A stretch of 63,618 nucleotides of DNA, counting the filler, from Folioceros fuciformis (Eukaryota), in the NCBI GenBank assembly GCA_049999805.1. It is 13 parts of 13 records of this genome, joined end to end, with 100 filler letters (N's around TTAATTAATTAA, not from the genome) between each part and the next. Parts side by side here need not be neighbours in the genome. Positions count along the whole stretch, not along the records: positions 58,010 to 62,404 come from JBNGIO010005309.1; 12 more parts are not named here. One strand, given 5' to 3'. The notes beneath the pieces were generated by a model. It did no database searches. It was not told the DNA's origin and saw only the letters and a list, made by a program, of their open reading frames with translations. Within the stretch, counting starts at the first letter, position 1. Each line of letters begins with the position of its first letter. Both the position numbers and the translations under genes were made by a program. Positions 2,531 to 63,618 of the stretch are shown piece after piece.

Positions 2531-4310
2531 TACAGTCAAACCCCTCTAATTGGGACCCCTATAAATGGGAACCCCCTTTAAATGGAACTCCCGGGCTTAC
2601 TTCCTTGAATGTGCTACATGCTAAATGGGAAACCTCTAATTTGTAAATGGGAACATGTCTCCCAAACATTCAATGCAAGTACACCTCTGTAAAAGGGAAA
2701 ATACATATTTAAAAATAAAAATAAAAATAAGGAAATTGGTTTATCGAGATTAAATCACGAGTTATTGAGATCATATCAAGTTAAAGGCTATTGAGATTAT
2801 ATCATAAAACATAGACAGTCATCGAGATTGGGCCTATATATGTAGTAGTTCTGTACACTATGCTTTGCGACCGGAAGTATTGTTCTCAGTACATAAGTTG
2901 TTTCATTATACAAGTTGTCTTATGGTGTTGTAAGTTGTTGTCTTGCTATGAGATATTTTGTATGCGTTCTCTTTGAGGTGTAGGAACAATGCCGCCCAAG
3001 CCGCTGCGCAAGCATGCAACCCTAACAAAGCAACAAAAGAAAGAGGTTTGCGAATATGATGTTCAACACTCTTGCACACTTAAGGAGTTGACTAGATGGA
3101 CAACAGAGAAGTTCTCAATAGCAACTTCTAAAAGTGCAGTGTCTAGGATTGTAAATGAAAAAGACAAATGGTTGGACCCTACCATTGGTCCAACAACTAG
3201 TATGGCAGGAATGAGGGATAGACCAGTCGTATGCTCAAAGGTTGACCACGCAGTACACGTTTGGGCTCTTGCGATCCAAGCTCTAGGTGCCACAATTTCA
3301 GATGACTTGCTTCGTGAGATGGCTTCCAAATTCCACGAGAGGATTCCTAAAGATGAGAGACCAAAAATGACATACCATAGAGGTTGGGTTGCTCGCGGGA
3401 AGAAAAGGTATAATTTTAAATTAGTTGTCAGACATGGAGAGCCAGGGAGTGTTGACAATACAAAAGCAATGAACGTAGCTATTAGAGAGCTGCAACTTCA
3501 AGTTCTTGATTATGAAGCTGCAAAGGTTTTTAGTATGGATGAGATTGGTCTTTTCTTCAGAGCACCACCAAACAGGACACTTGCAACAATGCGCGTTGTA
3601 GGACGGAAGCAGTTTAAGGACCGGTTGACAATTGGACTGACAATGTTGATGGATCTTGCAAGTTGCCACCTTTTGTGATTAACAGATATGTTAGGCCTCG
3701 TGCTTTTTCCGTCAGGAATGTTCAAAATCCCGAGAATTTGAATATTATCTGGTCTGCAAACCAAAAGGCATGGATCACAATAGAGCTGTTTGAGAAGTTT
3801 TTGCTAGATTTTGACCAGAGGATGGTTGCATCAGGGCGGACTAGAGTGTTACTTATAGCGGATGATTGTCTTGGGCATCGGTTTGATAATGCAGCTTAAT
3901 TGCGAGTTGCAAAGGTGGTTTTCTTTCCACCCAATGTGACAAGCGTATATAAACCTTTGGACTAGGGGATCATCCGTTCTTTCAAAGCTCAGTATCGCAA
4001 GTTGATGATTTCGTAGCAATGCAACCAGATCATAGACAATGCGGCTACAACTATTGATGTGTATCAAGCAGTGGTTATGCTGGTAAAAGCTTGGACTTCA
4101 TTTGTGAGTCCTCATACCATACGCAATTGTTGGAGGCATAGCACTTTGGATGCGGAATTGCGTGCACAAGATGCTTGATTCCGTGAGTCTTTGAATATAA
4201 ACAGCGCACCATATGATCCAGAGGATCCATTGTCGGATCCTCAAAATCACTCTAATTCGTTGAAAACGCAGGTAGAAGAGCTACAACAGTCCATGCGAAG
4301 CTTAGCATTA
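2531..4310 (+). mobile_element. pogo/Tigger-like (Tc1/mariner superfamily) DNA transposon, right end cut off by the scaffold edge
   Basis: TA followed by CAGTCAAACCCCTC at 2531-2546 fits a TA target site plus a CAGT-type TIR. Subterminal AAATGGGAA-like motifs recur at 2561-2700, and a transposase follows. Confidence 0.85.
2989..4150 (+). pseudogene. CENP-B/Tigger-type DDE_1 transposase, frameshifted and with stops
   Basis: N-terminal HTH region (LTKQQKKEVC..SKSAVSRIV), then FSMDEIGLFF, KAWITIELFEKFL, LLIADDCLGH and PPNVTSVYKPLD*GII. There are 32 codons between the second and third catalytic Asp (DD32D). Confidence 0.9.
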
Positions 4311-11670: not shown

Positions 11671-11689
11671 GATGTGGGTCGGGAGGCGC

Positions 11690-12589
11690 TAGGCCTCCGC
11701 TGGGGACTTGGCGCCCCCCGCCTACAGCTAGGGCTGCCCGCCCTACGCGGGCTGGCCGTGCCCCGTGTTGAGTTATCGAGCTCTATATGAGCTAAACTCA
11801 TGTGGTGTTAGTTATCCCAGTTGGGTTCATACTAGACTAGTTCTAGTTATTAGTGAACTTAGGATAGTGTAGATTATCCCATATTGAACCTGGAAGTTGT
11901 GTAGCCCTAAATGTACTACTTAAATGGAGACCTCGGACCTCCATAGTAAGACAGTGGTGATGTGTATTGTTTTCATGGTTGTGGTCACCAATACCACCCT
12001 CTCTTCTCTCCTCTCCTCTCCTACACTTACACGTAGACTGGAGTCGATCCTATTGACACCCCGAGCCCGTGCGCACTGCTTGGCTGGCTGGGCGCTCTAT
12101 GCACCCGTGCCCGTCCTCCTACGGCTGGGTGCCCTAGGGCCTGGGGTCGCCCCGCTCCTGTGGCACACCCCACGCTCTGGCTTTCGCTCTCGCTCTGTTG
12201 CGGCCTCTGCCTAAATGCCCATCTTCACAGTCTTGCGCACTGTGTCTGCAGTTTCTAGAGCCAACACCCTTGCTCCACACTTGAGCTTTAATACTAGTTG
12301 AAGAATCGCTACAGGAGCTACACGGTGAAGGAGGAGAGGAGGAAGCAAGGAGGACAGGAGAAAGAGAGGTCACACTCTCACACAGAGTCTCTATAGCAAG
12401 GGAGCTCAAGAGAGTATTTATACCCTCTAAAAGAGCTCCCAAGGAAGCTTCACAAGAAGCGCATAAGAAGTTGCACAAGAAGCTTCCTACATATTAGCTT
12501 AAGCTAATCTAAATTAATGATACTTAACTAGACACTAATCTTAGACTAAACACATTAGTTTAAGCACATTGGGCTTTAATAACCCTAGA
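11690..12589 (-). mobile_element. Copia 5' LTR (~12298-12589), degenerate tRNA-Met PBS and GC-rich leader
   Basis: 12480-12589 is the reverse complement of the LTR starting at 36929; TAGTATTAAAGC (a decayed TGGTATCAGAGC) follows the LTR on the minus strand. Confidence 0.75.
11766..12058. mobile_element. Solo LTR (293 bp) with 5-bp target-site duplication CCCCG
   Basis: Begins TGTTGA and ends TTGACA; CCCCG sits at 11761-11765 and 12059-12063. Confidence 0.85.
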
Positions 12590-16277: not shown

Positions 16278-19050
16278 GAGGAGTGTACGGGGCAGTCAAT
16301 TCTCTCCTGATTCCCTTGGAATCACAGAATGATTGGAAAGCCTTCGAAAGATACTCTCCCCTATTGTTTGTCCTTAGACATTTCAATCGGCCATACTGAT
16401 TCTCCACAAGGGTGACGAATTTTTGAAACACTGTCAGAACATCATCCTATTCCTCAAAGGATAAACCCACACCTTGCGTGAGAAATCATCTATGAAAGTG
16501 ACAAAAAAAGATGCACCGCCTAACGATACAGTGGGCATAGGTCCACAAAGGTCACTGTGAACCAACTCAAGAGGTTTACTTTTGTGTGTACCTCTTGCTC
16601 CATGTGGTGACTTTGTTTGTTTCCTATTCAAATAGTGCTCACACACGGAGAAATCGGAGAAGTCAAAAGCAGGGACATAACCAAAACGAGATAAGATCTT
16701 CATTCCTTTTTGAGACATATGTCCTAACCGACTATGCCATAAGGAAACACTTGGCTGTTCTGTTACACAAATCACATGATCCTTGACAGTGGTTANNNNN
16801 NNNNNNNNNNNNNNNNNNNNNNNNNNNNNNNNNNNNNNNNNNNNNNNNNNNNNNNNNNNNNNNNNNNNNNNNNNNNNNNNNNNNNNNNNNNNNNNTTCTG
16901 TTACACAAATCACATGATCCTTGACAGTGGTTACATGAAGTGAGTACAAAGTGCCACACTTTGATCCACGAGCTAACACAAGAGAACCTTTGGAGATCTT
17001 CCAAGAACGATATCCAAACCAACAATGGTAGCCAGCGTCATCCAACTGCCATGCGGGAGATCTTCCAAGAACGATATCCAAACCAACAATGGTAGCCAGC
17101 GTCATCCAACTGCCATGCGCTAATCATGCTTTTTGTCAACTTTGGTACATGTCTAACATCTTTCAATGTGAATGAAGATTCGTTTTCGAACTTCAGCTAC
17201 ACATCACCAACGCCTGCAATCTTGCATGCGTAGTTATTTCCAAGCCGAACACATCCTTTCCTAGTAGCATCATAAGTGCTAAACCACTCCCTATGCGGAG
17301 TAACATGGAAAGATGCTCTAGAGTCAATTATCCAATTAGAGAATAAGTGACTCTCCACGGCTGTCAGTTATGCAGAATCGAAGGAAGAAGAGATAAGAAC
17401 ATCTCCATCGTCAATAGAGTTCACCTCATCATGCTTGTTACTCAGACTTGCCCTATTGTCGCTTTGCTTCTTCTCCCTTCCTCTGTCCTTCTTGAACTTC
17501 TCGCAGTCCTTCCTGATGTGACCCTTCTTGTGAAAATGGTAACACTCAACATTGTTATGACTATGAGATTGGCTACGGTAAGAACTTCGCTCCTTGTACT
17601 TCCCCCTTAAAGCGGACGCTGCTTGTACTTCCCCTTTGAAGTGGACCTTCCTCTCACCATGAGGGCATTGGAACCTTTCAAAGGTTCCATATTCTTCTTA
17701 TTCACCTCCTTTGTTAACAGGCTACCTTCTACATTTACAATGGTAAGACCACTGGCAGGAGCGGAATTACTCAAAGCTGTACAAAAGGTGTCCCAGCTCT
17801 CTAGTAATGTGACCAACAGAAACATAGCTCTCACGGAATCTGGGAACGAGATACCTTGAGATGAGAGCTAGCTGAAAATGGTATTGAACTCATTCAGATA
17901 ATCGGACATCCTCGTCCCTTCCTTCATCTTCAAGTCCACCAGCTGTTTCAACCAGTACACCAGAGAAGCCGCACTTTGCTTCTCGTATAGGTCACACAAC
18001 TTCTGCCATAGCAGTAGCTTGTGGTCTTTCACATTGAAGTAGACCAATTTCGATAATGTTAGCATGATGGTAGACCTAGCAAGCTCATCTAGATCCTGCC
18101 ACTCATCCTGAGTCATGCTAATAGGTTTCACTCCTAGCAGCTTGATGGGCTTGATTTGCTTCTTCTGTATTAGAACATTATACACTTGTTCTTTCCAGAA
18201 CGGGAAGTTAGCACCATCTAACTTCTCGATATTGAACATGACGTTTTCTGAGGACGTCATGTTTCAAAATCAATGCAAATCAACCAAAAGGCTAATTAAA
18301 AAGCGGTCAAAATGAAATGTAGATTTTGTTACCTTCACTCTTGTTTTGAATCGGCTGTCCACAAGCCGACTCGACGAGCCTAAATCCTTCGATTGAGATC
18401 TTGCTACCTTGCGGCCGGGACGGTTTGGAGCCTATGCTTTCACTCTTGGCGTCGGTGCTCACTACGCCCCTCGCTTCGGCACCCGTAGCGACCGCGGCCT
18501 AATCTTGCTCCGACGCCCGCAGTCTCACTGCGCTTTGGTGCCCGCAGCCTGAACACACTCCGGGGCCCACGTCCAATGGTGCCCTCGGGCTGGCTGTGTC
18601 GCGCCTGAACGGCGCCCGTGCGTCAGGTGCGGCGCTCTCACTAGGCTGGTGCCCCGGCCTGGGCAGGCGCCCGGGGGCCTGGTGCTGCCCCTGCCAGGCC
18701 TACTGCCCCCGGGGGCCAGGCTGGCGCCCGCATCGCTCGGCGCTTGCGGGATTAGGAGCCCCGATCGGTGGGCGGGCGGGCGGCCAAGCCCCGGATGTCG
18801 GGGGCGCACCACCGATCGGGGCTGGCTGTGGCGGACTGGTGCCCCCGCAGCCTGGGCGCCCAGCAAGCTGGGAGGCCCACGGCTTGGGCACCTCCGGTGC
18901 CAATGGTGCTACGGGGTAGATGCCCCTCGCAGTGTGGCAGCACCCACCCGGTGCCCCACGCTCCTAGCACCCCTGAGCTCCTAGCTCCCTCGTTCTCGGA
19001 GCTCTGTGCTCCTCCTAGAGGCCCTTTCTCACAGGCCTTTGTCCTCACCG
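16278..19050 (-). mobile_element. Ty1/copia (Tnt1/Tork-like) gag-protease-integrase with a very GC-rich 5' leader
   Basis: Gag starts at 18260 (IEKLDGANFPFWK), followed by a CCHC knuckle, WIIDSRASFH, LWHSRLGHMS and LELVHSDLCGP. It is closely similar to 53657-55214. Confidence 0.92.
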
Positions 19051-41463: not shown

Positions 41464-42619
41464 CACTAGGCACGGGAATGACCTGAGAAGCTTGCGCGTC
41501 ACCTCCTCTCGCACCCGACCTAATCAGGCACCTAGATCAGATACGACTCCTTTTCATGAGTGGTGCTGTCTATGGTGAGGAATAGTTTTGCGCTGGAGAA
41601 AACCATTCGCCGCTCCTGCTGGAGTTCCAGAATAGGCCCCGGCATGCAATGACAGGCAGCGCGTGGCGAGAGGAAAGGAGAGGCAGGAGCAGAAGCAGGA
41701 CGACGATCAGGCTTGGCAGAGCTGCCTGAATGTTCTTGGGAGAGGCAATCTCCAATCCGGCCCGGTCGGAGCACAGGCATCTGGGTTGCGCATTTCCCCT
41801 GGTTCGATCGGCCTACTATCGATCTTCGCTCCTACATTACCATAATGGTTTCGTCCCAGCCGCGACTGCCAACTCCAGGCCACGTTCCAACCGCGGTTAC
41901 TTGCTCCGAGCGCTGCTTGCAACACCAAATGGATATGGACACTACGTGATTTGCGAAGCTGGCACAGGTGTCCCAGCTGGCTGGGTTTTGGGTTTTGGCC
42001 CAGCGTACGGCTAGTGCACTTCGCTACAGGAGCAGCTTGGGCCCAGACATGTTCCCAGCGTGCCAAGACCGCTATGTTTGTACATGTGTACATACCTGTA
42101 TAGTACCGCCCTATATAGGGATAGGTAGTCAGTCCTCCCATTTAAATACATACATAGGTGCCTTTTACAACTTTTACCGAAGTGCCAGAGAAAGCTATGT
42201 ACGTATGTACGTTGCACAAGAACGTATTCGAATCTGGCATGCCCTCCCTACTTGCCATCTTCGAAGAGACAGCCAAATCGTTCCCAGGCAAGAATGCTCT
42301 TCGAGCCATGTAGCAATGAAGCTTGATGGGCAACGCCTACACTTCAGCCAGCTGGATTGTTTGCCCGCTAATGCACCTCACGGCTTACGTCTTCCACGGC
42401 GCAATCCAGTTCAAAGAAAGTTCTTCATTCAGTGCCAAGATGGTTGGTCCACAACGCCGATCCACAGACTGGGGCCATGGATGCAAGACACCAACCCTCT
42501 TGAGTGGTGGGGGTGTGGCACCCAAGCGTGTGAAAGGGGAGTACAAACAACGTCGGATTTGCAACGCGTTTGTAGCTAGCAGGGCTGCCGGCCACACTGA
42601 ACTCCATACGTGATGGAAT

Positions 42620-44433
42620 GAAGGCAAAGAGAGCTAAAGCCTTGTCCACTTGTCCTGCACGACCTGGCAGATCGACCATAAGTGTAATGGTCTTCAGTCG
42701 GAGGGATGGCATAGTGTCTCGTCATAGCCTCAAAGTACTCTTGCCCCTTGTCCACTAAGCAATCGTGACTGCATACTGTTGTTAACAGCACACTAAGGAA
42801 TGTGACGCCGTCTGGCTGAATGCCACTCTGTGCCATTGTGAGAACCAAGGCAAATGCCTCCTCACTGTCTCCTTGCCGCGTGTATCCTGCGATCAGAGAA
42901 ATTCCAGGCGACACAGTTTCTTTCGTCCAGTCCCAAACACCTGCCATGCGTCCACCATGCTCCCACACTTCCCGTGCATGTTTATCAAACTTCCAGCGCT
43001 TGAAGTCCCTCGTGTTTCTTTTCTGCATGAAGCTGCATTCCCACCTTCAGAGCTGCAACAAGTGCACATGCCTGAAGGAGGCAGACCAATGTCACTGAAT
43101 TGGGTGAAATGCCTTATTCATACATGGCCCGGTAAAGACGAAGGCCTCCCTCTCCCATTCCCTGCTGGGAACACGCTGCTGTCATGACAGTCCAGTTCAC
43201 CACATCCTTCTGAAGGAGTCTGTGAAATACGCCCGGAGCATCCTGTAAACTGTCGCAGTTTGCGTACATGTTCACCAAGCTGTTGGCTACAAACAAGTCA
43301 GCCTCAAGCCCCTGTACTTTAATTTCTGCATGAAGCTGCCGTCCCAGACCCTGGTGAGAGCGCGCTCGCCACCGGCACTGTGGGTGCCGAGGGAGGGAGG
43401 GAGGGCCGCGTGGGCCGTGGCGGCCCTCGATCCCGGCCGCACCTTCCTTTCTCCAGAGCAAGGTTGCCCACACTAGCATATGCCTGCAGAAGGGAAACAA
43501 CTGTCCCAGCATTAGGTCCAGCAAGGCCTTCTTCGTGCAAAGCACTTTGGAGACCTTCGAAGGGGTTGCTGCCCCTTGCCCTGCTGGAACTATCTTGATA
43601 CCGTCACACTCCAAGTCACCACATTGTTCTGACCAAGGCCATCAAATGCGACACGTCCACCACTAGGCTGCCACACTTCGCATACATGTCGACCAAACTG
43701 CTCGCGAGAAATACATCACCTTGAAGTCCTCGTTCTCCCATTTGCGCATGAAGCTGCTTGCCCTTCTCCAGAGTCGGGCTGCCCACCCTTGCACAAGCTT
43801 GTCCAAGGCATACAAATGTCACGGAATCAGGTCCAACTATGCCTTCTTCTTCCCTACCCGTCACAAGATGAAGAATCTTCCTGCCTCATGCCCTGCTGAG
43901 AATATCCTGTGATCATGGCATTCCACGTCACCAAAGTTTTTGGACCAAGCCCCTCGAACGCGCACACCGAGCATCCTCCAGGCTGCCACGCTTTACGTAC
44001 ATGTTCACCAGGCTCCCAGCAACAACTACATCGCCCTTGTATTATCCGTTGTTTACATGCACAGATGTTCTGGCACCCCACGTGAAGGCATCTGGTTCAG
44101 CAACCGCTGTGAACACATCCATAACTTCCTGCAAACTGTTATGAGAAGTGTACATCGCAGAATGTGGTTGCAAAAGAACGTGTCCGAATCGTACCCGTAT
44201 TTGACCGTGAGAGCATGAACTCTGCGGCCTAGAGCCAGATCCTTCTTAGCCACACACTCCTTCACCACCGTATTAACCAGAGAGTCGGATACTGTTGGGT
44301 GTGTAAGCACCAGAAGTCCTAAAGCCTCAACGGTGTCCGTGAGCTGTCCCTTCTGGCATAGCTCGCTCGCAGATGCGTGCATGGGAAGGCTTCCTTCCAA
44401 CGGCGCTGCACCTGGCAGCTTCTTTGCTACCAC
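42620..44433 (-). pseudogene. Degraded PLS-class PPR gene, tandem paralogue of the adjacent gene
   Basis: Fragments SELCQKGQL..LGRRVHALTVK.GY.SDTF.CNHILR, VTWNAMITGYSQQG, SLVDMYAKCGS, QPDGVTFLSVL and MVDLPGRAG are spread over several frames. Confidence 0.9.
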
Positions 44434-44549
44434 TTTGCTGGCTGCACAGCACCCCTCCCCAAACCGGCTCCTGTTGCCACTTACATGAGGGAATTGCAGC
44501 GCTGCCGACAGACATTGGCCTTCAGAAGAAAAATCGGGATGACCCTACT

Positions 44550-47549
44550 TCAGCCTTGCTTCACGCTCAAGATGTGGGGCGCCTTATCCCCGACTTTGAA
44601 GCTGTGCACCAGCCCGTCCATGTCTGCCCACCAGCTCTGTCCTGGCTGCTTCCATGCCCCGTGTCGCATTCGCTTGGCCTGCAGTTCTTGTGCCTGCTCC
44701 CACATCTGAGCACCGGTGTATATGCTCGACATCAACACGTACGCTGCTGCATCTTTCTCGTCCAGCTTGACTGCTTCATCAAACGCATGGCGAGCCAATT
44801 CCACGTTGCTCCACTTTCGACACGCGCCCAACAGAGTATGCCAAATTGCGAGATTAGGCAGCAGAGGCATCGTCCCCACCAAGGCAAGTGCCTCGCCCAG
44901 TTCTCCTGCACGACCTAGTAGATCCACCATGCACGTGTAGTGATCAGCAGTGGGAGAGAGGCCGTGGTGTTGGCTCATAGCCTCGAAGTACTCCCGTCCC
45001 CTTTGCACAAGACCCGTATGACTGCACACTGTTAGGACACTGAGGAACGTGATGCCGTCTGGCTGTATGCCATCGTCTCTCATTCTGACAGCCAGATGAA
45101 AGACCTCTTCACTGTCTCCATGCCTACTGTATCCTGCTATCAATGCACTCCACGTGAAAATATCTCTTTTAGGCAATGCCTCAAACACTTGCTGCGCGTC
45201 AACCATGCTACCGCACTTCCCGTACATGTTCACCAAGCTGCCGGCTACAAGCAAGTCCGCTTGAAGACTTCGGTCTTTGATCTGTGCATGAAGATGCCTG
45301 CCCAGATGCAAAGCTGCCACACTCGCACATGCTTGAAGGAGGCAAACAAATGTCACAGAATTGGGTGCAACCAAGCCTTCTTCTTGCATAGTACTGTAAA
45401 GTCGGAGGGCCTCCAGACCCATACCCTGCTGGGAATATTCTGCTATCATGGCACTCCATGTCACCACATTTTTTTCATCCAGACCGTCAAGCAGGCCCTG
45501 AGCATCCTCTAGGCTGCCACACTTCGCATACATATCTACCAAACTGCTAGCGACAACTACGTCTGCTTCTAGCCCTCGTTCTCTAATCTCTCCATGAAGC
45601 TGCTTCCCCTTCTCCAGAGCGAAGGGGCCAACGGTTGCACATGCCTGCAGCAGACACACAAACGTGACTGCATCGGGAGCAGCCATGCCTCCTTCTTGCA
45701 TTGCCCTGTAAAGACCAAGGGCTTGATGGCTCAGTCCTTGGCGGGAATATCCCGCTATCATGGCATTCCACGTCACAACATCTTTCTGGGTCAGTGCTTC
45801 AAACACATCGCGAGCATCCTCTATGCTGCCACACTTTGCATACATGCTTACCAAACTGTTGGTTATAAACACATCTTCAAGTCCTCGTTCCCTGATTTGT
45901 GAATGAAGTTGCATTCCCTGCTCCAAAGCAAGGTTGCCCACACTTGCACATGACTGGAGGAGGCACACAAAGGTCACAGAATCCGGTGTAATGACACCTT
46001 CTCTTTCCATAACGCCATAAAGCTGCAAAGCGTTCTGCCCCATGCTCTTCTCGGAATATCCTGCTATCATGGCATTCCATGTCACCACAGTTTTCCTACC
46101 AAGACCCTCAAACACGCCCAAAGCATTTTCCACGCTCCCACACTTGGCATACATGTTTACCAGGCTCCCACCTACGACAACATCAGCCTGAATCCCTCGT
46201 TCTGTGATCTTTGCATGAAGCTGCTTCCCCACCTCCAAAGCCGAAATGCCCACACTTGCACATGCTTGCAAGAGGCAGACAAACGTCACAGAGTTGGGTG
46301 TAGCCAAGCCTTCCTCTTGCATTGCCCGGTAAAGACGAAGGGCTTCCTGACCCATGCCCTGCTGGGAATATCCTGCTATCATGGCGTTTCAAGTCACCAC
46401 ATCCTTTACTGAAAGCCCGCCAAAAACTCTTTCAGCATCTTCCAAGCTGCCACACTCTGCATACATGTCTACCAAGCAACTACACACAAATAAGTCAGGC
46501 TCAACCCCACTGCCTAAGACATCAGCATGGATTTGCTGCCCAGATTTCAGGTCTGCTCGCCTTGCACAAGCCTGAAGGGCCACTACAAACACCTGCCCGT
46601 TCGGATTCACACTTGACCTGCGCATCCGATGATACAATTGTATGGCCTGCTCATCTTGACCGTGTCTGACATGGGCAGATATCATCGCACACCACGTGAA
46701 AGCATCTGGTTTGGTAACCACCCAGAACACATCCAAGGCTTCCTGCAACCTGGCATGAGAAGCATACATTCGCAGGATGTGATTGCACAAGAACGTGTCC
46801 GACTCATACCCCGTCTTCACGGTGAGAGCGTGAACACGGCGACCCAGGGGCAGATCCTTCTCAGCCACGCATCCCTTCAACACCATGTCAAAGAGAGATT
46901 TCGAAACAGAACAGTCTATTTGCACCAGAAGTCCCAGAGCTTCCACGGCATCAGGCACTAGCCCATGCTCACAGAGCTCGCTTACGGTTTCAACCGTCAC
47001 ACAGTTGTCGTATCCTGCAAGCCTGCAGCCATCCAGGTCGCTCCAGTGGGATGTATCACCCATCGGCATACCCGGATCAGCAAGCTGCGTATTTATCCAA
47101 GCTGACGTCTGGAAGTTCCAGAGCTCTTTATCTCGCAATTCCGGCGGACGACAGCTCCCCTGGTGTAGAACCACAGAGTGGAGGGCATGTGAATGAGTCT
47201 CGCTGGAAGTGACGTCCCCAGCCACGCATCCGCCTCTTGGAGCGATGCTGCATCTCGCAGCTCCTTTGATTGCCAGGGGTTGGTTGGTAGAATTCGCAGA
47301 CGCCGAAGCTCTACCTACAGTGCCTACTAACCTCCGCACAGACGTCCACGATTGCTGTAACAATCTGACTTCCACATGGCCTGATACTACAAGTAGAGCA
47401 ACTAAGGTGAGGCATTCATGTTGCCCGTGCTGTGGACGACGCGTGGGAGGAAGTTGGAGTAGGATTGAGGCAGTTAGACCTTGCTTCGCGGGCAGAAAGT
47501 GTGCGGCGCAAGTACCGTAGGAGGAAGTTTGGCTGGCCGGTTGCTGCAT
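44550..47549 (-). CDS. Intronless PLS-class PPR protein (about 20 motifs, E1-E2, WW-type PG box, no DYW core) with one in-frame TGA at 46389-46391
   Basis: The 386-aa and 610-aa ORFs share a frame: GTG GTG ACT TGA AAC GCC ATG = VVT*NAM, where sister motifs read VVTWNAM. The C-terminus is WKQPGQSWWADMDGLVHSFKVGD..*. Confidence 0.92.
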
Positions 47550-48119
47550 CGATCGACCACGAGGAGCTAGAAGCTAGCTGTGCACTGGTGCGCAGGGATA
47601 TGCATTAGTAGCGTGTGCTCATTCTGAGGGTCCAGGGTTGGACTCGGGTCGGCCCTGTAGTCTCCAGCTAACGATTTCAGGTGTGGCACTTGCTTCTTTA
47701 TTTCAGATAATAGGGGGATCAGACTTGGATACAAAGCCACGGCTCTCAGAACCCTCGTCATCCCAAGCAAAAAGAAGTTCGTCCATCCACCAGCTCTGGC
47801 TCTGGCCTGGCTGTTCCACGCCCCAATTCCGTTTCTCCTTGCCTGCATACCGGAAGGCTTAAAAATGGGGCCCTACGCAAGATCAAGCGAAACGGCAGGA
47901 GAGTGGCTAGTTTTATTGTGCTAATCATGCTTGTCTCTAGGGAAGATAGTTTGGCTCATGAGGCTATTAGTCTCGGTCAAGTAGGTACAGAAATTGGAGT
48001 GGAAAGTCCTCACCAGCAATGGCACAAGTGAAATAAAGAGAAAATTAAAAGTAAAAAAGTGAAAGCTAAATATAGAGCAAGAAGAAAATGTGTGTTTTAG
48101 GCAAAACTCTTAAGAAGTT

Positions 48120-52779: not shown

Positions 52780-53656
52780 GTCCCCAATAGAGTTGGGTAG
52801 TTAGGATCTGACGTGGTAGAGGGGGTAGTTTAAGCGTTTAAAGACACTGTTTAATGAGCTTAAGCGCTGTGGCAGGTGAGAGACCATCAATGGCTGCCTA
52901 CCCGACCAACCATCCCAACCGATAGTAGCCAGGAACTCTATAAGAGTCATAGGGCTCAACAGATAAAGTGGTCGTTCCCCGTTGTTCACCAAGCCTGAGC
53001 ACACTTGTTCGTGTTCCAACGAGTGCGCTCCTGCCGGCTGCGTTGTCTGTAGTATCTAGTAGCTTGGTGGGGATCGTGACGGCCCAGACGCCTGGATGTG
53101 AGGTGCCGTGTTTCGCACGCACGCCTGCGGTGTCCGACCTGGGTGAGTTTGTCAAGAAGGGCCCGGGTCTTCGAGCTGACTAGAGATCTTCGCTACCACC
53201 GCATCAGTGGTCCTCCTCGTGAACGAAGTCAGGTAACCACTCTCCTGACGAAGGAAGAATGCAGGAGTTGCATAGGTGGGTATGGAGTCGAGGAGTTGAG
53301 GGAGTTGAGTTGAGAAGGGAAGGCTGGTCTGGGAGGATTAGATCGAGGAGAAGAAAAGACGAGAGCAAGAGAGGAAGTGTTGGACTGGACACAAGGAAGT
53401 AACCGGGGAAGAGAGTGAGGAACGTGGGTGTCCTACCTTAGTGAGTCGCTGACAGCAGAGGCGTGGTTGGCAGGCAGGAGGTGTATTCAGGCTCTCAAGG
53501 GTCGTGGTAGAAGAGAGGTACGAGTAGAGTCGTTCACACACACAATTGGGATAGGCCCTCCTTTGAGGGAACGAAACCTGCTAGACTACATGACAGCAGG
53601 ATAGGTGTGGCCGCTAGAGGAAAGCCCCTAGGTGTCCCAGGGTTTTTTCCACCACA
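52780..53656 (-). mobile_element. Probable gypsy-type LTR with a degenerate PBS, nested in copia pol
   Basis: TGTGGTGG begins at 53656, exactly where copia homology stops; AACTCTATTGGGGAC at about 52780-52794 resembles a GACTC.GCTGGGGAC-type PBS. Confidence 0.55.
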
Positions 53657-55214
53657 AAGTGCCATACTTCGATCCACGAGCTAACACAAGAGAACCTTTG
53701 GAGATCTTCCAAGAATGATCTCCAAACCAACAATGGTAGCCAACGTCATCCAATCGCCTTGTGCTAATCATGCTTTTGGTCAACTTCGGAACATGCCTAA
53801 CATCCTTCAATACGAATGAAGATCCATTGTCGAACTTCAGCTGCACATCACCAATGCCTGCAATCTCGCATGCGTAGTTATTTCCAAGCCAAACACATCC
53901 TTTCCTAGTAGCATCATAAGTGCTAAACCACTCCCTATGCGGAGTAACATGGAAAGATGCTCCAAAGTCAATTATCGAATTAGAGAATAAGTGACTCTCC
54001 ACGGCTGTCAGTTGTGCAAAATTGAAGGAAGAAGAGGTAAGAACATCTCCATCGTCAACAGAGTTCACCTCGTCACGCCTGACACTTGGACTTGCCTTGT
54101 TATCGCTCTGCTTCTTCTCCTTTCCTTTGTCCTTCTTGACCTTCTCGCAGTCCCTTCTGATGTGACCCTTCTTGTGACAATAGTAACACTCAACATTGTT
54201 ACGACTACGAGACTTACTACGGGAACGACTTCGCTCCTTGTACTTCCCCTTTGAAGTGGACCTTCCTCTCACCATGAGGGCATTGGAACCTTTCGAGGGT
54301 TCCATATTCTTCCTGTTCACCTCCTCTATTAACAGGCTACCTTCTACATTTACAATGGTAAGACCATTGGCAGGAGCAAAATTACTCAGAGTTGTACGAA
54401 AGGTGTCCCAGCTCTCTGGTAATGTGACCAACAGAACATAGCTCTCACAAAATCTGGGAACGAGATACCTTGAGATGAGAGCTGGCTGAAAATGGTATTG
54501 CACTCATTCTGATGATCGGACATCCTCGTCCCTTCCTTCATCTTCAAGTCCGCCAACTGTTTCAACCAGTACACTTGAGAAGCCGCACTTTGCTTCTCAT
54601 ACAGGTCACACAACTTCTGCCATAGCTTAAAACTTATGGTCCTGTCTTTCACATTGAAGTAGACCGACTTCGACAATGTTAGCATGATGGTAGACCTAGC
54701 AAGCTCATCTAGATCCTGCCACTCATCCTGAGTCATGCTAACAAGTTTCACTCATAGCAACTTTATGGGCTTGATCTGTACTAGAACATTATACACTTGT
54801 TCTTTCCAGAACGGGAAGTTAGTACCATCTAACTTGTCAATATTGAACATGACGTTTTTTGAGGACGTCATGTTTCAAAATCGATGCGAATCAAGCAAAA
54901 GGCTAGTTAGAAAATGGTCAAAATGTAAAAAGTTACCCTCACAACGAAATGGCTGTCCACAATTTAGGCTTCGGTCGCTCACAACTGGAATATCTCCCGT
55001 CGTCCGATTGAGATCCCGACTTCTACGGCTGGGATCGGTTTGGTGCCCACACTCTTGCTCTCGGCGTCGGCACTCTGGCGACCGCGATCTGGCGTTTGCT
55101 CTATGGCGCTCTGGCGCTCTGCCTCTCCTCGATATTTACGTCCGACGACACCCTCGGTGCTCGCCAGCCAGATCCTCGCCGGCCGGGTCGTCGCCCATCG
55201 GCCGCGTCCTCGCC
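53657..55214 (-). mobile_element. Ty1/copia gag-protease and GC-rich leader, same family as 16278-19050
   Basis: Near-colinear nucleotide similarity; CYYCHKKGHIRRDC and IIDFGASFHVT. Confidence 0.93.
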
Positions 55215-55314
55215 NNNNNNNNNNNNNNNNNNNNNNNNNNNNNNNNNNNNNNNNNNNNTTAATTAATTAANNNNNNNNNNNNNNNNNNNNNNNNNNNNNN
55301 NNNNNNNNNNNNNN

Positions 55315-57909
55315 GGATGGGTCTCCAGCTTGAGTTAGGAGAGCATGTGCCATCAATCCCCGAGAAGATGTAAAAGTTAAGTCATGAAATTTGACAACAG
55401 GGATGCCACGGTTGGATCTAGATGAGTGTCTTCCAAGAGAAGGTATGGATTCAGAGACTCCCTCCGTAGATACACCTGAAGTTGACAAGTGTGGAGGCTG
55501 AGATGAACCAGATGATAAAGATNNNNNNNNNNNNNNNNNNNNNNNNNNNNNNNNNNNNNNNNNNNNNNNNNNNNNNNNNNNNNNNNNNNNNNNNNNNNNN
55601 NNNNNNNNNNNNNNNNNNNNNNATACGGTGAGAACCATGGCCTCTGCTGTGACGTTGCCACAGGTGGTGTGGGTGGATAGCCAATAGGGGGGGCAGGAGC
55701 ATTAGGAACAATGGCCTGTTGTGAAGCTAGGGGGGTAGGTGAGGACGGTGTGGAATCGTCACCATCATCGAAAGAAGCCACCACGCCATGGGAGGGATCA
55801 GCAACAGGAGAGGCCACGGAGTGAGAAGGGGCGTCCCTGTGAGAAGTGAGGACGGAATCTTCATCAAAGCGCACACTACGGCTGAGAGTGACACGCCGAG
55901 TTTGTCGATCCAGTAACGTGTAACTCTTCACACCATGGAGCTCACCATAACCAATAATGGTAAGTTGCTTGGACTTGGGATCAAGCTTCTTCCGTTGTTC
56001 ATCTGGAACATGTTGGTAAGCCACACAACCAAAAACTCTAAGATGCTGCAAATTGGGTTTATGTCCTGTCCAGATTTCAAAAGGAGTTTTGCCCTACAAC
56101 GCAGATGTGCTACATCTATTTTGAACATAACATGCTGTAGCCACAGCATCTGCCCAAAGGAAATGAGGGAGATTTGCAGCCTATAGCATACTACGAGCAG
56201 AAGTCAGCAAGTCTTGGTTCCTCTTTTCAGCTTTGCCATTCTGTTGAGAAGTGTAAGGAGTGGTATGTTGGAGTTGAATCCCAGCTGTAGAGAGAAAGCT
56301 CCGAAAATCCCCGGAGGTAAACTCACCACCCCCATCAGCTCTGAAAATCTTGATTTTGTGGTTGAGCTGATTTTCCACAAGTGCCTTGAATTGCTGAAAA
56401 TAATGCAAGGTTTCGAACTTGTGCCGTAGAAAATATACACTCGTGAAGTGACTGAAGTCATCTAGAAGGACAAACATGTATAATTTGCCGGCCAGGGATT
56501 GGGTTTGCATCGGACCACAAAGATCAGCATGAATTAATTCTAACAAGGCTGTACTTTTGCTAGTGGAAGCTGAGAACTTATGGACACGGTGCTTCCCTTT
56601 AAGACAGCCTTCACAAAGAGGAAGATCTGTCAACCTGCTAGGAAGACCAACAACCATGTCTAATCTTTGCATCTGTTTGATAGAATTAAGATTCAAGTGA
56701 GCCAACCGATGGTGCCACAAAGTGGTGGTTGCTTGGGCAGGAGCTGTAGAGGCTATAAGGCTAACAGCAGAGCCTGACCCTGTAGCAACGGGGAGACCTC
56801 TACCAAGAGGATACAACCTCCCAGATTGGGAACAATCAAAGGAGAATTGCTGACCAGAGGGTGTAACAGAAATAACTTTGCAATGATTATGGAAAAATTG
56901 CTTACTGCTGCCGCTGATCTTTGTAGCCTCATGTACAGAGATGAGATTCTTAGCTAGACCAGGTACATGAAGCACATTATCAACAATGATGTGCTGATGG
57001 TGGGGAGAACCAAGCTGTATTTGAACAGAGCCTACACCAGCAGCAACGTGAGAAGTGTTATCACCCATGAAGACTGGACGAGGTTGAGAGAGGGGTTTAT
57101 AAGTAAGAAACCACTCCCTTTTTGGAGTCATGTGCTCCGTGGCACTAGTATCCAGATACCATGTGTCCTGCAGATATTCGTCACTTGTAGAGGTGATAGA
57201 GAACAGATGGATAGGAGCTGAGCAAGCAAGGTTTGCTTGAGAGTTTGAGGAGGAAACGCCAGACGATTTGTCCCGTTTCTTCTTCCTACAATCAGGAGCA
57301 ATATGACCTTTCTTTTGACAATAATGACAGATTTTGTCCTTGTGAGCGGGGTTGGATGGAGGAAACCTAGAGGCAGACGGTGGTCTACCAGACGGCTTCT
57401 TCCAATGCTTAGAACCCCTAGCAAAGAGAACAGTAGGACCCTTAGCAGATTAAGTAGGATCTGACCTAAGGACTGCATTATGCATAATCTTCGAGATTAA
57501 TACTGTCAATGTTAATGGATTGGCAGGTGTATACATACTAGATTGAGTGGATACGAAGGGTTGCCACAAGGGTGGCAAAGACCGCAACAAGTGCATGACT
57601 TGTTCTTCTTCATCAATCTTCAGCCCGGCGGAAAGGGCCTCATCCAAAACACCTTGCCAAGTCTCCAAGAAGTCAAGGGGAGAGTCCCCTTCTTGCATGC
57701 GGGTGGCTGCAAGTTTGTCCTGTAGGTGAAGTTTGGAAGCCATGCTGACGGCTTGATAGGTGCTAGCCAGCTTGTCCCAAACTTCCTTGGAGGTTGTCAA
57801 CTTACTAAGAAAGGGTATTTGACGATCTCCCACATGGAGAATCAGATCGGAAAGTGCTTTAGAATCGCGTTGTAACCAAGCAGGCTCATCAGCATGGCCT
57901 GCTGAAGGT
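55315..57909 (-). mobile_element. Ty1/copia gag-protease-integrase
   Basis: TSKEVWDKL, LLRSLPPLW, CHYCQKKGHIAPDC, WYLDTSATEHMT, LWHHRLAH, LELIHADLCGP, RADGGGEF, QQNGKAEKRN and HLRVFGCVAY. Confidence 0.95.
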
Positions 57910-58009: not shown

Positions 58010-59953
58010 TCCCAGCGGGCAGCAGCAGTGGCTGCGCCTCCCTCTGAGTTTCTCTGGCTTCACGCACCTGAGCAACATCGATGTTGAAGGCTGCTGCTGC
58101 CACTTCCTCCGGAAGCCTGCGCAACACGGATGTACTGCCTGCAAGAGCTTCCACGAGGGGCCTGCAATGCAAATGCGATGTACCTACCGTAAGCGCAACG
58201 CCAAGCGAAAAAGCCGAAGTCTGGATTTGTCAGGAGGAACACTCACTGGTCGGTAGTGTAGAAGCTGATCCATTCCAAACCCTCGCTGCCAGCCTGCACG
58301 CCGTGGGCATGGAAGCGGGGAATCACGTACGCCTCACCTTCCCGCAGTTCCCTATCCACAAGCTGCTCCCCATTGTGACTAACCACCTGCAGGTTGCCGC
58401 TGCCTCTCAAGATGTGCACCACCTCATGTCCCGTGGGCGACCACTGCGGAGCCAAAATAGCGTTCTGCAAAAATCCACGAGCGGGTTCCGTGAGCGATCA
58501 CAAACAAACTGCGAATATCTGCATGCAGACAAGACCAACAAGAAAAACAAGTGTGACATACGTCCTCCAGACGGCCGTAAGTAAGACCCAAGTCGACAGC
58601 CCTGAGGATGGGCAGCTTGAACCTGTTAACGCTGTTGTAAAAACCAGCATCGCGGACGCGAACATCAGCTGATCCCTCGCGAACGTTGAACACGAACTCT
58701 CCGTTAGCCAAGTACTCGCGGAGATGAGCATCGGCTCTCTCGGCGGAGCGGGAGATGCTGCGGCCCTCGTCTCTGTTGACATCCTGCTCCTGCTCCTGCT
58801 CGAACTCGGGCAGCCTGATGTCACGATCTACCAAGACGATAGCCGAGCCTCTCTGATTGTCCAGCAGCTCATCTACTCTGGCCTCGTCCAGATCCCAAGC
58901 CTCAGCCAGAAACTCCCTCCTGAAACCTTGGAGAATTGAGCCATACTCCTCTTCCTGTTGCCGTCCGCGGCCTCCGCGCTTGCGATCTTCGCGCTCCCTT
59001 CGACGCCGTTCCCGTTCTCGCTCCTCACGTTCCTCACGTTCGCGCTCCTCGCGTGATCTGCCTCGGCCATCGCGTTCGCGTTCGCGTTCCTCCCGTTCTC
59101 GCTCTCGCTCCTCCCGTTCCTCACGCTCGCGCTCCTCGCGTGATCTCCCTCGGCCATCGCGTTCGCGTTCCCGTTCGCGCTCCTCCCTTTCCCGGCGCTC
59201 CCGTTCTTCCCGCTCCCGGCGCTCGCGTTCGCTCTCGCGGCCTTTCCCTCGGTTCAGCCTCCTCTTGCCTTCTCCTCGGCCTCCGCCGGCCAGATAGAAC
59301 GCCTGCGCAACCAGCATACACAGACACATTCACGCCCACGAAGACCGTTCCCCAGGGTGCACAACTTGTGGCTCGAAGTCTGGATCCAAGACACCACAAG
59401 AGCTTACGTTGTATTCCCCGTTCTCTGATGCGGATGTGTCGGCGAAGCCAAGGATGCGGAGCTCCTCATTGCCGCTGTTGTACCACCATGAAGCCACTCC
59501 CCGAGGTAAGGCGACGACATCGCCGCGCCTAACCCGACGGATTCTCGAGCTTTCAGCGTACCCACTGAGAACGCCCACAATGCCCTCACCTGTCGACAAA
59601 ACACCTTTCAGCTCGACCTTAAATCAGGACAACAATCACCAACAGACATCCATGCTGCTGCACAGACGTCAGAAGCAGCAACCTTTGGCTCTCCCCTCAC
59701 CTTCTTCCACATATCCCACGGCCGCGGCATCAGAGTACTTGGGCAGGAACAGACCACGTTGCTTGAGAATGATTCTGGCGGATGCAACGTTAGCGTCTCT
59801 CAGAGCCTGGCTGTCGGGCTGCCATTGCTCGAGCCGACCTCCGTCGGTGCGCAGCACCTCCTCGGGCTCTCCCAGCCGAAGCTCTTCACGCTCGCCGGTC
59901 GCGAAGGACGCGACCAGGAGAAGCCCCAAAACCCAGAACACGGAGCGACTCAT
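58010..59953 (-). CDS. 11S globulin/legumin-type bicupin A: signal peptide, ~110-aa Arg/Glu insert, 5 exons, 3' end cut by the scaffold edge
   Basis: Exons 59953-59701, 59589-59408, 59302-58562, 58464-58247 and 58161-58010, all GT-AG. Motifs LPKYSDA, GDVVALPRGVASWWYNSG, FYLAG, ILQGF, ANGEF, VNRFKLPILR, NAILAPQW, LEWISFYT and LAGSTSVLRRLPEEV. Confidence 0.92.
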
Positions 59954-60740
59954 CGCCACACCACTGCACATGCCTTAATACAAAATCTCGGACACGACCA
60001 CACGCCGAGTGCTGAGAAACGCAGCGAAGGGAAGCCGCATTTGTACTCCTCGCAGCCTTTCGGATGTGGCAGCTGCGAATCTGTCTTCACCAGTCTGCCG
60101 GACTGCAGCTCCCAACTCCCACTCGCGCGTAACTGCCAGTCCGTCACAATCCCACTCGCCCCACCGTGCCAAGAGACGCAGAATGTGCGGCGTGCAAGCG
60201 GGGAGGCGATGCATTTGGTCCAGCGTCACGTCCATCTCCACATTACTCTCCACGGCTTCCGTTTCCGCAAGCTTTGCCTTCACACTCGTTCGTTCGTTCG
60301 CCCGAGCGTGCCAAGAGACGCAGAATATGCCGTTTGCATGCGGCATGCAAGCGGGAGGCGCTGCATCTGGTCCAGCGTCACATCCGTCTCCAGATTCTTC
60401 TGCACGGCTTCCGATCCCGCAAGCCAGCCTTCTCTTACTCGTGCCGTACTTCACAGCCACAAGTGGCAGGCATCTGGGCGTGGCGACAAGACACCGCTAA
60501 TGTGTCGGCGGCCATCAGACTATCACACCCTGCCAGTGCTGGCACCCTACTGCCACTTCCCTCCAAATTGGACGCCCACGGCCAGTTGCACTCCGACTCC
60601 ATCCCCGCCTGTCCCGGTTTGCCATTTACGTCACATTTCCCCTCTCCACTAGTAAGCACCAGGTCTCATTCGCAGTCTCCAATCCGAATCTGTTTGGTCT
60701 CAACCGGTATCGTGGCGGCTACGCATCCTTGCTGAGCGAT
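59954..60740. promoter_or_regulatory. Bidirectional promoter between the two legumin-type genes, with a central inverted RY pair and a ~100-bp internal duplication
   Basis: TTGCATGC-G-GCATGCAA at 60334-60350; blocks at ~60165-60260 and ~60307-60412 are similar; ACGT cores at about 60228 and 60628. Confidence 0.65.
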
Positions 60741-62347
60741 ATGGGTTTATTGGGGAAATGGGCTCTCGCCCTGGTTCTGGCCTTCGCCTGCGTCGTTGCA
60801 GCGGAGCGCCACGAGCTGCAGCTGGAGGAGCCCAGGGAGATCCTGAGCACCGACGGCGGCCGGGTAGAGTCCTGGTCCAACATCCGGGCGCTCAGGGACG
60901 CCGATGTAGCCGCAGCCAGGATCAGTGTCCGCCAGCGCGGGCTTGTTCTGCCCAAGTATTCTGATTCTGCTGCGATCGGATACGTGGAAGATGGCGAGGG
61001 CTATGCCGGCATTCTCACCGGGTATTCTCTAGGAGAGGCGTCCGGTGTTAGACGTGTGAGACGCGGTGACATTGTTGCCTTCCCCCGCGGCGTTGCGCAC
61101 TGGTGGTACAATTCCGGCAACAGCGAGCTGCGCATCATCGGCCTTGCTGAGACGTCGGCGGGAGAGGAGGCCGGCGAGGCTGGAGTACGGATTTGGGAGC
61201 TGGATTCGTGTGCATTATTTCTGCGGGAGGTTTCGCTTGTTTGCTGAGCGATGTGACTTGGTTTGCGCTTGCGATTTGCAGACCTTCTTCTTGATCGGAG
61301 GAGGCCGGGAGGAAGGAAGCGAGCGCGAGCGGGAGCGGGAGCACGGGTGGAGAGGGCGTGGGGAAGGCCAGCAGGAGTTCCGCGGAGTGCTGCACGGCTT
61401 CAGGCGGGATTTCTTGGCCGATGCTTGGGACGTTGAAGAGAAGGTGGTTGATGCGATCCTCGACAACCAGCGGGGAGTGGCCATCGTCCAGTCGGAGCGC
61501 GATGTGAGGATCGAGGAGACGAACGCGCTTCAGGGACGGCAGCGGGAGAGTCTGAGCCACTTGCGCGAGCACATCGCCAACGGGGACTTCGTCTACAACA
61601 TTCGCGAGGGCTCCGCTGACGTGCGCGTTCGCGATGCCGGTCTCTACAATACCGCGAACAGGTTCAAGCTTCCCATCCTGAGGAACGTGAACCTTGGTGC
61701 CTCGTATGGCCGTCTTGAAAAGGTTCGTCAGGTTTCGGGGGAAACAAATGCATGCATGATCCATGACGCGCTCGCTTTGTTCTTGAAATCGGTCCATGTG
61801 TCGGTGACCACCTGGTTGTGTGCTGTCGCAGAATGCCCTCCTCGCTCCCCAGTGGAATATCAACGGCCATGCCATCCTGCACGTCCTGAAGGGCCGCGCA
61901 AGACTGGAGATCGCTAGCAGCAATGGAGAGCGATTGGCGAGCCAGGATATCACGGAAGGAGAGGCGTACGTCGTCCCGCGCTTCTACCCGCACGGCATTC
62001 AGGCTGGAGGGGAGGGCTTCGAATGGATCGCCTTCCATACAACCGACCAGTAAGCCGCATGCTGTACACAACAGGCCTTTCCTGGAGTCGCAGAGTCGCC
62101 CTCGCTCTTACTCTCGCCATTCCATCCGTGAACTTGCAGGCCATTGGTGGAGGCTCTTGCAGGCAGGTCCTCTGTTTACCGCCGACTGCCGGAGGAGGTG
62201 GCAGCTGCGGCCTTCAATGTGGACGTTGAACAGATCAGGAAGAGCAGGGAGCGCCGGCAGAGGGCAGCGCTCATCCTGCCTGAACGTCGCCGCGAGAGCA
62301 CCAGCTTCGACTTGTCCTTCCTTCGCATGCTCAGAGGCAGGAAATGA
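60741..62347 (+). CDS. 11S globulin/legumin-type bicupin B: signal peptide, 4 exons, 436 aa, complete
   Basis: Exons 60741-61184, 61282-61722, 61832-62049 and 62140-62347 splice to 1311 nt in frame. Same motifs as gene A (LPKYSDS, AHWWYNSG, ANGDF, NALLAPQWNINGH, FEWIAFHT, LAGRSSV). Confidence 0.93.
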
Positions 62348-62504
62348 AGAATGAATTCAATGGAGGACAGCATAACTTGTACATAAACTGAGTCGGTTCG
62401 GTTANNNNNNNNNNNNNNNNNNNNNNNNNNNNNNNNNNNNNNNNNNNNTTAATTAATTAANNNNNNNNNNNNNNNNNNNNNNNNNNNNNNNNNNNNNNNN
62501 NNNN

Positions 62505-63618
62505 TTGAAGATTTTGGCATATGCTCAGCTTGCTCACTAGCTAAGAGCCAAAGGTCTCCTTTCCTGAAGGGCCCTGCAACAAGAGCCACCAAACGGCTCC
62601 AATTAGTCCATTAAGACTTGTGAGGACCCTTAAGGAGGTCCCTCCATGGCTACCTGTACTTTATGCTCATCATAGATGACCTAACAAGATTCACTATCAT
62701 ATGTTTCCTCAAACAAAAAAACCAAGCATTGACATGCTTTAAAGACTACAAGACATGGGCTGAAAAACAAACAGGTGACTCCATCCTTTGCTTACAATCT
62801 GATGGAGGCAGCGAGTATGGCTCTAGCCCATTCCAACAATTCTGCAGGGAACACGGGATCAATCGTCAAGTAACCACTCCGCACACCTCCCACCAAAATG
62901 GAGTGGTGGAGAGAATGAACCAAACAGTTCAGAATTGTGGATTGTCTAGGCTTATACACGCACAGCTTTCCAAAAGTTACTAACCAGAGGCCATGGGACT
63001 CGCTATGTATATTATCAATAGGACCCTCACTACAACACTACCTCAAGGTACTACATATGAAGCTTGGATGGGGCACAGGCCAAATCTCTCTACCCTCGGA
63101 GTTTTCGGCGCACCTGTTTACGTACACACACCCAAAGCAGTTCGAACAAAGCTGGATGATAGGGCCAGCAAATACCTATTTGTGGGATTCACTGACGCCA
63201 TTAAAGGCTATAAACTCATCCATCCATAGACACACAAACTGACCTATTCCCGAGATGTAACATTCCTTGAGGACATGCCGGACAACCTTGTAGTGGGAGA
63301 ATCCTCCAGCCACACCACTGCACAGCCTGAGGATAGTGACGAAGATGAGTCCAAACCACCCAATCTCCTAGCTCCTCACCAACAGGCTCAACCACAGCCA
63401 CCTGCCCAGCCCGTGCCACCAGCCACACCTGCACCAAAGCCCGGCCCTCTGCCTTAGCCTGCAGCAGCAACTCCATCAATCTTCTTCGGCGATTTTATGG
63501 ACAACGAGCTCGACCCCTCCTTACTTGTAGAAGCGTCCTCGACCTCTAGCATCTTCAGCTCCAATCGACATGGGGAATAGCAGGCCCGAAGCGCTCCAGG
63601 ATGAGGATAGCCAACGAC
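62505..63618 (+). mobile_element. Ty1/copia integrase, decayed
   Basis: CSACSLAKSQR, IIDDLTRF, LQSDGGSEY, HQNGVVERMN and TKLDDRASKYLFVGF..KGYKL. Confidence 0.93.

Follow-up and report, generated by a model that had tools for sequence, protein, structure and literature searches.

A head-to-head pair of legumin-like bicupin genes, predicted to encode secreted proteins outside the seed 11S clade

What do the two legumin-like genes encode that lie head to head on a short scaffold of the Folioceros fuciformis assembly GCA_049999805.1, and how do their products relate to the 11S globulins of seeds? The window, by which we mean the whole stretch of 63,618 nucleotides that was analysed, consists of 13 scaffolds joined by N runs with TTAATTAATTAA linkers. 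The scaffold of interest (58010–62404; record JBNGIO010005309.1) measures 4395 bases, has a guanine-plus-cytosine (GC) content of 0.593 and is free of internal N. Stop-to-stop open reading frames (ORFs) and hand-built models revealed two divergently transcribed legumin-like bicupin genes on it, here called A and B, and no further cupin genes were found elsewhere in the whole window. The explanation that we favour, and hold to be probable rather than secure, is that the locus is an inverted duplicate of a legumin-like bicupin, whose products would enter the endoplasmic reticulum (ER) and serve as Arg-rich, non-enzymatic nitrogen-reserve globulins of a land plant that is probably not a seed plant.

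Gene A occupies positions 58010–59953 on the minus strand and has five exons (59701–59953, 59408–59589, 58562–59302, 58247–58464 and 58010–58161). Its 3′ end is truncated by the end of the scaffold, where the reading frame is still open, and the protein has at least 515 residues. The four introns (59590–59700, 59303–59407, 58465–58561 and 58162–58246) are all of the GT–AG type, measure 111, 105, 97 and 85 nucleotides and lie in phases 1, 0, 0 and 2, respectively. Gene B (60741–62347, plus strand) is complete; its four exons (60741–61184, 61282–61722, 61832–62049 and 62140–62347) encode 436 residues, and its three introns (61185–61281, 61723–61831 and 62050–62139; 97, 109 and 90 nucleotides) are likewise GT–AG. 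The Cupin_1 domain (PF00190) occurs twice in each protein, which makes both of them bicupins. The matches fall in exons 1, 2 and 4 of gene A (E values from 2e-6 to 1e-14) and in exon 1 (1e-21) and exon 3 (2.6e-15) of gene B.

Are these models genes in use? Two sequencing runs with the same species label contain most of the scaffold: X1, a DNA run of 2025 that is possibly the source, has 0.97 of the scaffold words, and X3, from an independent study of 2017, has 0.67. No run with words of the scaffold is recorded as RNA, and the ‘RNA?’ attached to X3 is a guess, but its contigs are spliced. Given their stated cut offsets, they skip each of the seven modelled introns, with borders exactly as in the models. 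It follows that X3 is RNA and that genes A and B are transcribed and spliced in this form. A first reading of this DNA, made from the letters only (the sequence-only reading), had described a head-to-head pair of bicupin genes, with four introns in gene A: one behind YVEEG, one ahead of FYLAG, one ahead of NA..PQW and one close to the C-terminus. The gene models and the spliced contigs agree with it on each of these points, the second and third introns preceding (A)FYLAG and NAILAPQW. For gene A, the word depth of the X3 contigs runs from thousands to ten thousands, and for gene B from approximately 1300 to 3500; these figures do not rank the two genes. Two runs with the same species label, X9 and X10, contain almost no scaffold words, but they are too tiny for this to count as evidence. 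The RNA contig of gene B reaches position 60397, at least 344 nucleotides 5′ of the start codon, and this 5′ leader (60397–60740) carries an upstream ORF, about 50 codons long and out of frame, that extends from near 60500 to 60652.

The proteins A and B are 62% identical over approximately 385 aligned columns, and their exons form inverted repeats that are 71–78% complementary. From this we conclude that the locus arose by inverted local duplication. Gene B has no counterpart of intron 1 of gene A (phase 1, 59590–59700), a difference that the sequence-only reading had not mentioned; its coding sequence is continuous at 60990–61010. Between neighbouring duplicates that are 62% identical, this difference is a clean intron loss (or gain). 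Three intron positions are presumably common with seed 11S genes, and the fourth, C-terminal one only with gymnosperm genes. The intron positions of angiosperm and gymnosperm legumin genes were reportedly compared by Häger et al. in 1995. One paper gives an angiosperm legumin gene as ‘4 exons, 3 introns’ (PMC11187137). Run X1 also contains contigs that are 85–95% alike with differing intron lengths; these are paralogues or alleles, and hence there is a gene family. The paralogous contigs in this DNA run recall the tandem bicupin arrays of the hornwort Anthoceros angustus, where bicupin duplicates are clustered as A and B are (PMC7027989).

To which family do the two proteins belong? Judged by similarity, A and B are of the legumin (11S) type and not of the vicilin type. 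Exon 1 of gene B matched 35 rows among the solved structures, of which the best 20 are all 11S-type, from cruciferin at 1.3e-18 down to glycinin G1 at 2.1e-8; the first vicilin follows at 3e-5. The exon of the C-terminal domain matched 34 rows. The first 21 of these are 11S or 12S globulins, and there are no 7S globulins among the 34. The linker exons match 11S globulins only. Both domains are thus nearer to 11S than to 7S proteins, in no case is a 7S vicilin the best match, and the far weaker 7S similarity bears out the 11S-type assignment made earlier.

After the globulins, the C-domain exon weakly matches bacterial oxalate decarboxylases (approximately 1e-5), and exon 1 matches germin oxalate oxidase at approximately 3e-4. 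These rows would be expected if A and B were metal-dependent cupin enzymes of the oxalate decarboxylase or oxidase type. The matches lie 8–14 orders of magnitude below those to 11S globulins, and inspection by eye of cupin motif 1 in either domain of A or B revealed no complete metal motif of the His-X-His type. An oxalate enzyme is an explanation to which we give hardly any weight.

For relatives beyond the solved structures, a HMMER scan with exon 1 of gene B covered 1.84 billion representatives and gave 193 matches at E ≤ 1e-3, 51 at ≤ 1e-10 and one at ≤ 1e-30. The best match, P0001, is 61% identical over the N-domain, and the next are secreted bicupins of 400–450 residues with 33–40% identity. 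P0001 has an Arg/Glu-rich stretch directly after its leader, and its gene call apparently runs into an intron past the first cupin domain. A word-based homologue search with the same exon gave no matches among 3772 candidates; with P0001 as the query, it found nothing beyond P0001 itself.

Both proteins start with a predicted signal peptide, read by eye. In gene A, it comprises residues 1–20 (59894–59953, minus strand), with a hydrophobic core and small residues at positions −3 and −1. In gene B, it comprises residues 1–21 (60741–60803, plus strand) and contains the only Cys of the protein. Solved mature 11S chains align only from approximately residue 23 of the query, beyond the leader. The hydrophobic leaders that the sequence-only reading had assigned to both genes are therefore upheld as predictions.

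The first tree set was made of 101 matches of at least 330 residues from the best 150 of the 193, which together with A and B gave 103 rows, labelled by simple motifs. FastTree recovered a crown clade of 47 rows that includes all 38 rows with 11S motifs (support 100) and a clade of 17 short rows, mostly leaderless (100). A and B form a pair (100) outside both clades. For IQ-TREE (LG+C20+F+G4; 409 columns), 46 of the 103 rows were picked by hand to cover every cluster. The crown 11S clade (14 rows) received 100/100 support with a stem of 0.75, and the leaderless clade (8 rows) received 100/100. The A/B pair (100/100) is again outside both; it is weakly joined to P0005 (45/34), and the remainder of the tree is unresolved. 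A and B are thus not inside the crown 11S clade. In the approximately unbiased (AU) test, the tree in which A/B was forced together with crown 11S scored 1.86 log-likelihood units above the free search (p-AU 0.572). It had been proposed earlier that the two genes are close to the ancestor of seed legumins; a position as sister to crown 11S is allowed by this test, and closeness to the ancestor is not demonstrated.

The short clade bears on a different origin, in which A and B would be cytosolic legumin-like cupins that gained a leader. (The label ‘cytosolic’ follows here from how short the rows are and from their lack of a hydrophobic N-terminus; it was not taken from protein names.) Forcing A/B together with the leaderless clade costs 7.71 log-likelihood units, and the AU test does not reject this sister position (p 0.21). 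The short leaderless legumin-like cupins, of approximately 350 residues, belong to the same superfamily as A and B and show a comparable overall identity to them (about 36–39% between A or B and P0155). However, they form a separate clade with 100/100 support without A and B, their N-terminus has no hydrophobic run and no leader, and at the site of the FYLAG insert they have 2 residues compared with 28 in B and 115 in A. Neither A nor B is leaderless, about 350 residues long or placed in that clade. We regard the acquisition of a leader by a cytosolic cupin as extremely improbable, and the earlier separation of these genes from the cytosolic legumin-like cupins stands.

Names for the nearest relatives were obtained by searching a profile of 12 relatives in a word-indexed collection, which returned 12 proteins. 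The seed-free plants with named relatives are the liverwort Calypogeia fissa, with two proteins (one of which is P0005), the lycophyte Diphasiastrum complanatum, with one, and Selaginella moellendorffii, with three, including a protein that NCBI calls ‘11S globulin seed storage protein 2’. Four angiosperm proteins were also returned, and the three that were added to the next tree all fell in the crown clade. The identity of A and B to all these proteins is 36–46%, the best being Diphasiastrum with 45.8% and 41.2%. A quick tree of 52 rows, from which P0149 was left out for its long branch, placed the lycophyte rows together (93) and paired the two liverwort rows (100). The A/B pair stands alone in it, in the same unresolved grade as the lycophyte and liverwort rows. 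In terms of sequence, A and B belong to this grade of secreted legumin-like proteins of seed-free plants, which is not a supported clade, and not to the crown seed 11S proteins. Secreted, Cys-poor legumin-like proteins are thus a feature of seed-free land plants, and the host of A and B is not closely related to any of the named ones.

Known examples of the kind are the secreted bicupins of Selaginella (P0152), Diphasiastrum (O6H91_10G079800, P0151) and Calypogeia fissa (P0005 and P0154). These four proteins have in common with A and B the leader, two Cupin_1 domains, the FYLAG-type and GF motifs and an 11S-like C-terminal tail; they also have no 11S Cys pair and lie outside crown 11S. P0152 carries an Arg/Glu insert at the same site as A and B, and both P0151 and P0152 have Arg/Glu-rich N-terminal stretches. 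Unlike these relatives, A and B contain far more Arg, have the longest insert of the 52 rows (in A) and group with none of them. The novelty implied by the sequence-only reading was overstated, given that Selaginella and other seed-free plants already have annotated proteins of this kind and that bicupin arrays are described in the hornwort paper.

The host is predicted to be a land plant and most likely not a seed plant. The first part follows from a gene with an E motif for a pentatricopeptide repeat (PPR) protein on another scaffold of the window. The second part is drawn from the tree position and the named relatives only; the nearest named relatives are non-seed plants, in keeping with the seed-free setting proposed at first. 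Introns that are short and GC-rich, numerous PPR genes and clustered bicupins would fit a hornwort, a lycophyte or a fern alike. Does the scaffold itself come from this host? It could derive from a seed plant or a contaminating organism, as its GC content of 0.593 compares with 0.44–0.58 for the other scaffolds and its GC at third codon positions is 0.66–0.74 compared with 0.54. Run X4, which bears the label of another organism and is marked ‘DNA?’, has an identical gene A contig without introns 1 and 2 (in the 59224–59993 region) at a low depth of approximately 8.5. Two short identical pieces at a depth of 3–4 are present in run X8, from a third organism in the study that produced X3. We infer that the X4 and X8 matches are an abundant transcript carried over between libraries. 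On the other side, the DNA and RNA runs with 0.97 and 0.67 of the scaffold words come from different studies with the same species label, the introns and the other scaffolds agree in GC content (0.45–0.57 in the introns), the look-alikes in the Atlas are clusters of Streptophyta, and A and B lie outside the crown seed 11S clade. A foreign origin of the scaffold is very unlikely.

Do A and B then have the two-chain design of the seed proteins? Canonical seed 11S globulins (legumin, glycinin, cruciferin and prunin) resemble them in giving the best structure matches for both domains, in the leader and in a variable insert in the FYLAG loop. After cleavage, the canonical proteins assemble from trimers into hexamers in storage vacuoles. 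A and B differ in their position outside the crown clade, in being free of Cys and in having no homologous Asn-Gly. The sequence-only reading had pointed to an Asn-Gly between the cupin domains as the site of processing. The dipeptide is indeed present, as Asn345-Gly346 in gene A (58700–58705, minus strand) and as Asn248-Gly249 in gene B (61579–61584, plus strand). Three alignments (HMMER against amaranth 11S, HMMER against pumpkin 11S, and L-INS-i with 33 rows) show that the canonical 11S Asn-Gly, which is followed by EETxC, aligns with Ala-His in A and Ser-His in B. The Asn-Gly of A and B sits 8 residues downstream, just past the conserved 11S Cys column, which is Ala in both proteins in the 33-row alignment. 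Owing to this shift, it is not the homologous 11S processing site, and this part of the claim fell.

Mature A and B are without any Cys, the one Cys of B being in the leader, and an 11S inter-chain disulfide is therefore impossible. Neither the inter-chain nor the intra-chain Cys pair is present, there is no Asn-Gly before EETxC, and only a short segment takes the place of the PGC-containing loop of 11S proteins. The disulfide-linked two-chain design of 11S globulins is therefore absent in A and B, and so is the 11S signature of the PROSITE pattern.

There are three NG dipeptides in each protein, and a lone NG near the domain border is weak evidence of processing, as its occurrence by chance is expected. 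The border Asn-Gly is kept in both paralogues, with no variant at its codons among the listed differences of the paralogous contigs. Cleavage of A and B at some Asn is possible. Asn-Gly is the regular 11S cleavage site, some 11S globulins of Amborella, Ginkgo and Metasequoia deviate from it, and seed-free plants have vacuolar processing enzymes that lie outside the seed-plant clade (PMC4544213).

The composition of the two proteins bears on their role. Mature A contains 17.4% Arg and 16.8% Glu, and mature B contains 12.8% Arg. By comparison, the 38 crown-11S rows have a median of 8.8% Arg and a further 33 secreted rows one of 5.6%. In gene A, an insert rich in Arg and Glu separates the FYLAGG motif from GSILQGF (58946–59281, minus strand); it counts 112 residues by direct slicing (115 by alignment columns) and is 41% Arg and 37% Glu. 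The insert at the FYLAG-type site of gene B has 25–28 residues. A charged insert after this motif had already been noted from the sequence and is present in both proteins. The FYLAG loop was measured in one alignment of 52 rows: crown 11S has 11–57 residues there, most secreted seed-free rows have 6–8 and the leaderless clade has 2, compared with 28 in B and 115 in A, the longest of the 52. The Selaginella ‘11S globulin seed storage protein 2’ has an insert of 63 residues, with an Arg plus Glu fraction of 0.59, at the same site. The gene A insert is built on three tandem units of 87 nucleotides (58988–59248), and X1 and X3 contigs swap 120 nucleotides of it (59105–59226) for 33 other letters; it differs in length among alleles or paralogues.

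A nitrogen-storage role is favoured because of the high Arg content (17% and 13%), the leaders and the lack of a complete cupin metal motif, and composition makes such a role plausible. The products of A and B would be directed into the ER by a cleavable leader, adopt a two-domain cupin fold and build up as globulins that are very rich in Arg and have no enzymatic activity. They would constitute the nitrogen reserve of a dormant or desiccating stage, or possibly of vegetative tissue. In a loop that is also variable in seed 11S proteins, the Arg/Glu insert would add nitrogen-dense and probably disordered sequence and be able to lengthen through tandem duplication. If an asparaginyl endopeptidase cuts A and B, it would act at a non-homologous Asn. 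Secretion or vacuolar deposition, the storage role, the oligomer state and cleavage are all predictions.

The expanded bicupin arrays of hornworts suggest another function. A and B might be secreted stress or defence bicupins, apoplastic or vacuolar, that protect in desiccation or pathogen attack rather than serving mainly as a nitrogen reserve. The hornwort genome paper treats the arrays as stress or desiccation genes (PMC7027989); Arg enrichment is missing in most secreted non-seed relatives, and the tissue behind the X3 RNA was probably vegetative or mixed. By contrast, 13–17% Arg and a 112-residue insert with 41% Arg resemble nitrogen storage, and the closest similarity is to storage 11S globulins. 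We consider a protective function unlikely, and still a serious contender.

Several points weigh against the nitrogen-reserve explanation that we favour. Accumulation, targeting, oligomer state and cleavage are predictions from sequence, and the signal peptides of A and B were judged by eye only. The odd amino-acid make-up of the A and B rows, which was flagged in the trees, can disturb their placement. The ‘seed-free’ host rests on relatives that are 36–46% identical and on a PPR gene elsewhere in the window. The depth of the X3 contigs is a poor measure of expression. Finally, most secreted non-seed relatives are not Arg-rich, and the storage role may not be ancestral.

A bolder version of the storage reading can be formulated, in which A and B are the sister lineage of seed 11S globulins and a major Arg-rich reserve of spores or dormant stages, cut by asparaginyl endopeptidase at the shifted Asn-Gly into chains that start with GEFVFN and GDFVYN, without a disulfide. 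We think this combination distinctly doubtful. If it were true, two-chain processing would predate the disulfide-locked design of seed 11S globulins and would have moved relative to it. Fern spores are stated to contain globulins in PMC8585027, which cites Templeman et al. (1987). Expression of ABI3/LEC2-type genes is reported for the maturing spores of a lycophyte and a fern (PMC5379062), and PMC9023351 gives a tree of storage proteins of the legumin-like and vicilin-like kinds across land plants. No paper was found that describes processed proteins of the 11S type in the spores of bryophytes or lycophytes, with older subscription literature and the hornwort and Cycas supplements outside the scope of the search.

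The region between the start codons of A and B (59954–60740) is 787 bp long and contains a direct repeat, with copies at 60156–60272 and 60298–60424 that are 85–86% alike. The second copy includes two CATGCA (RY-type) motifs (60335–60340 and 60344–60349) that are 9 bp apart; the first copy has degenerate versions of them. The pair lies approximately 50 nucleotides upstream of position 60397, the farthest point that the X3 contigs of gene B reach. In seed legumin promoters, CATGCA forms the RY core to which B3 factors of the ABI3 type bind. Over the whole window, 45 CATGCA were found compared with 41.7 expected, which is the chance level, and the intergenic pair is only a hint of a regulatory motif.

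The remaining scaffolds carry a cluster of intronless PPR reading frames (41707–47573). It includes a PLS-type PPR gene of approximately 1000 residues (44553–47573, minus strand), whose two ORFs are separated by one in-frame stop and which carries the E motif mentioned above; by its motif, this gene is of the land-plant RNA-editing-factor type. A DYW-type domain, which would have served as a lineage marker, was not found beside it in the five ORFs scanned. Remains of retrotransposons (reverse transcriptase, gag, zinc knuckle and copia-type gag-pre-integrase/integrase), several with stops, are located at 7408–11782, 16434–17123, 53628–57449 and 62505–63618. The DNA-binding domain of a Tc5-type transposase is encoded at 2977–3678. 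The Rfam scan of the whole window gave no matches and thus no RNA marker of the host lineage.

The origin of the seed 11S storage globulins is an old question, and expressed genes from a seed-free plant with mapped introns give material for it. Proteins of this kind are already in the databases for Selaginella, Diphasiastrum and a liverwort, and as arrays in a hornwort, and the locus is suited to comparative study rather than to surprises. What A and B add is a divergent lineage, the Arg/Glu insert of which is extreme, together with a clear case of intron loss between recent duplicates.

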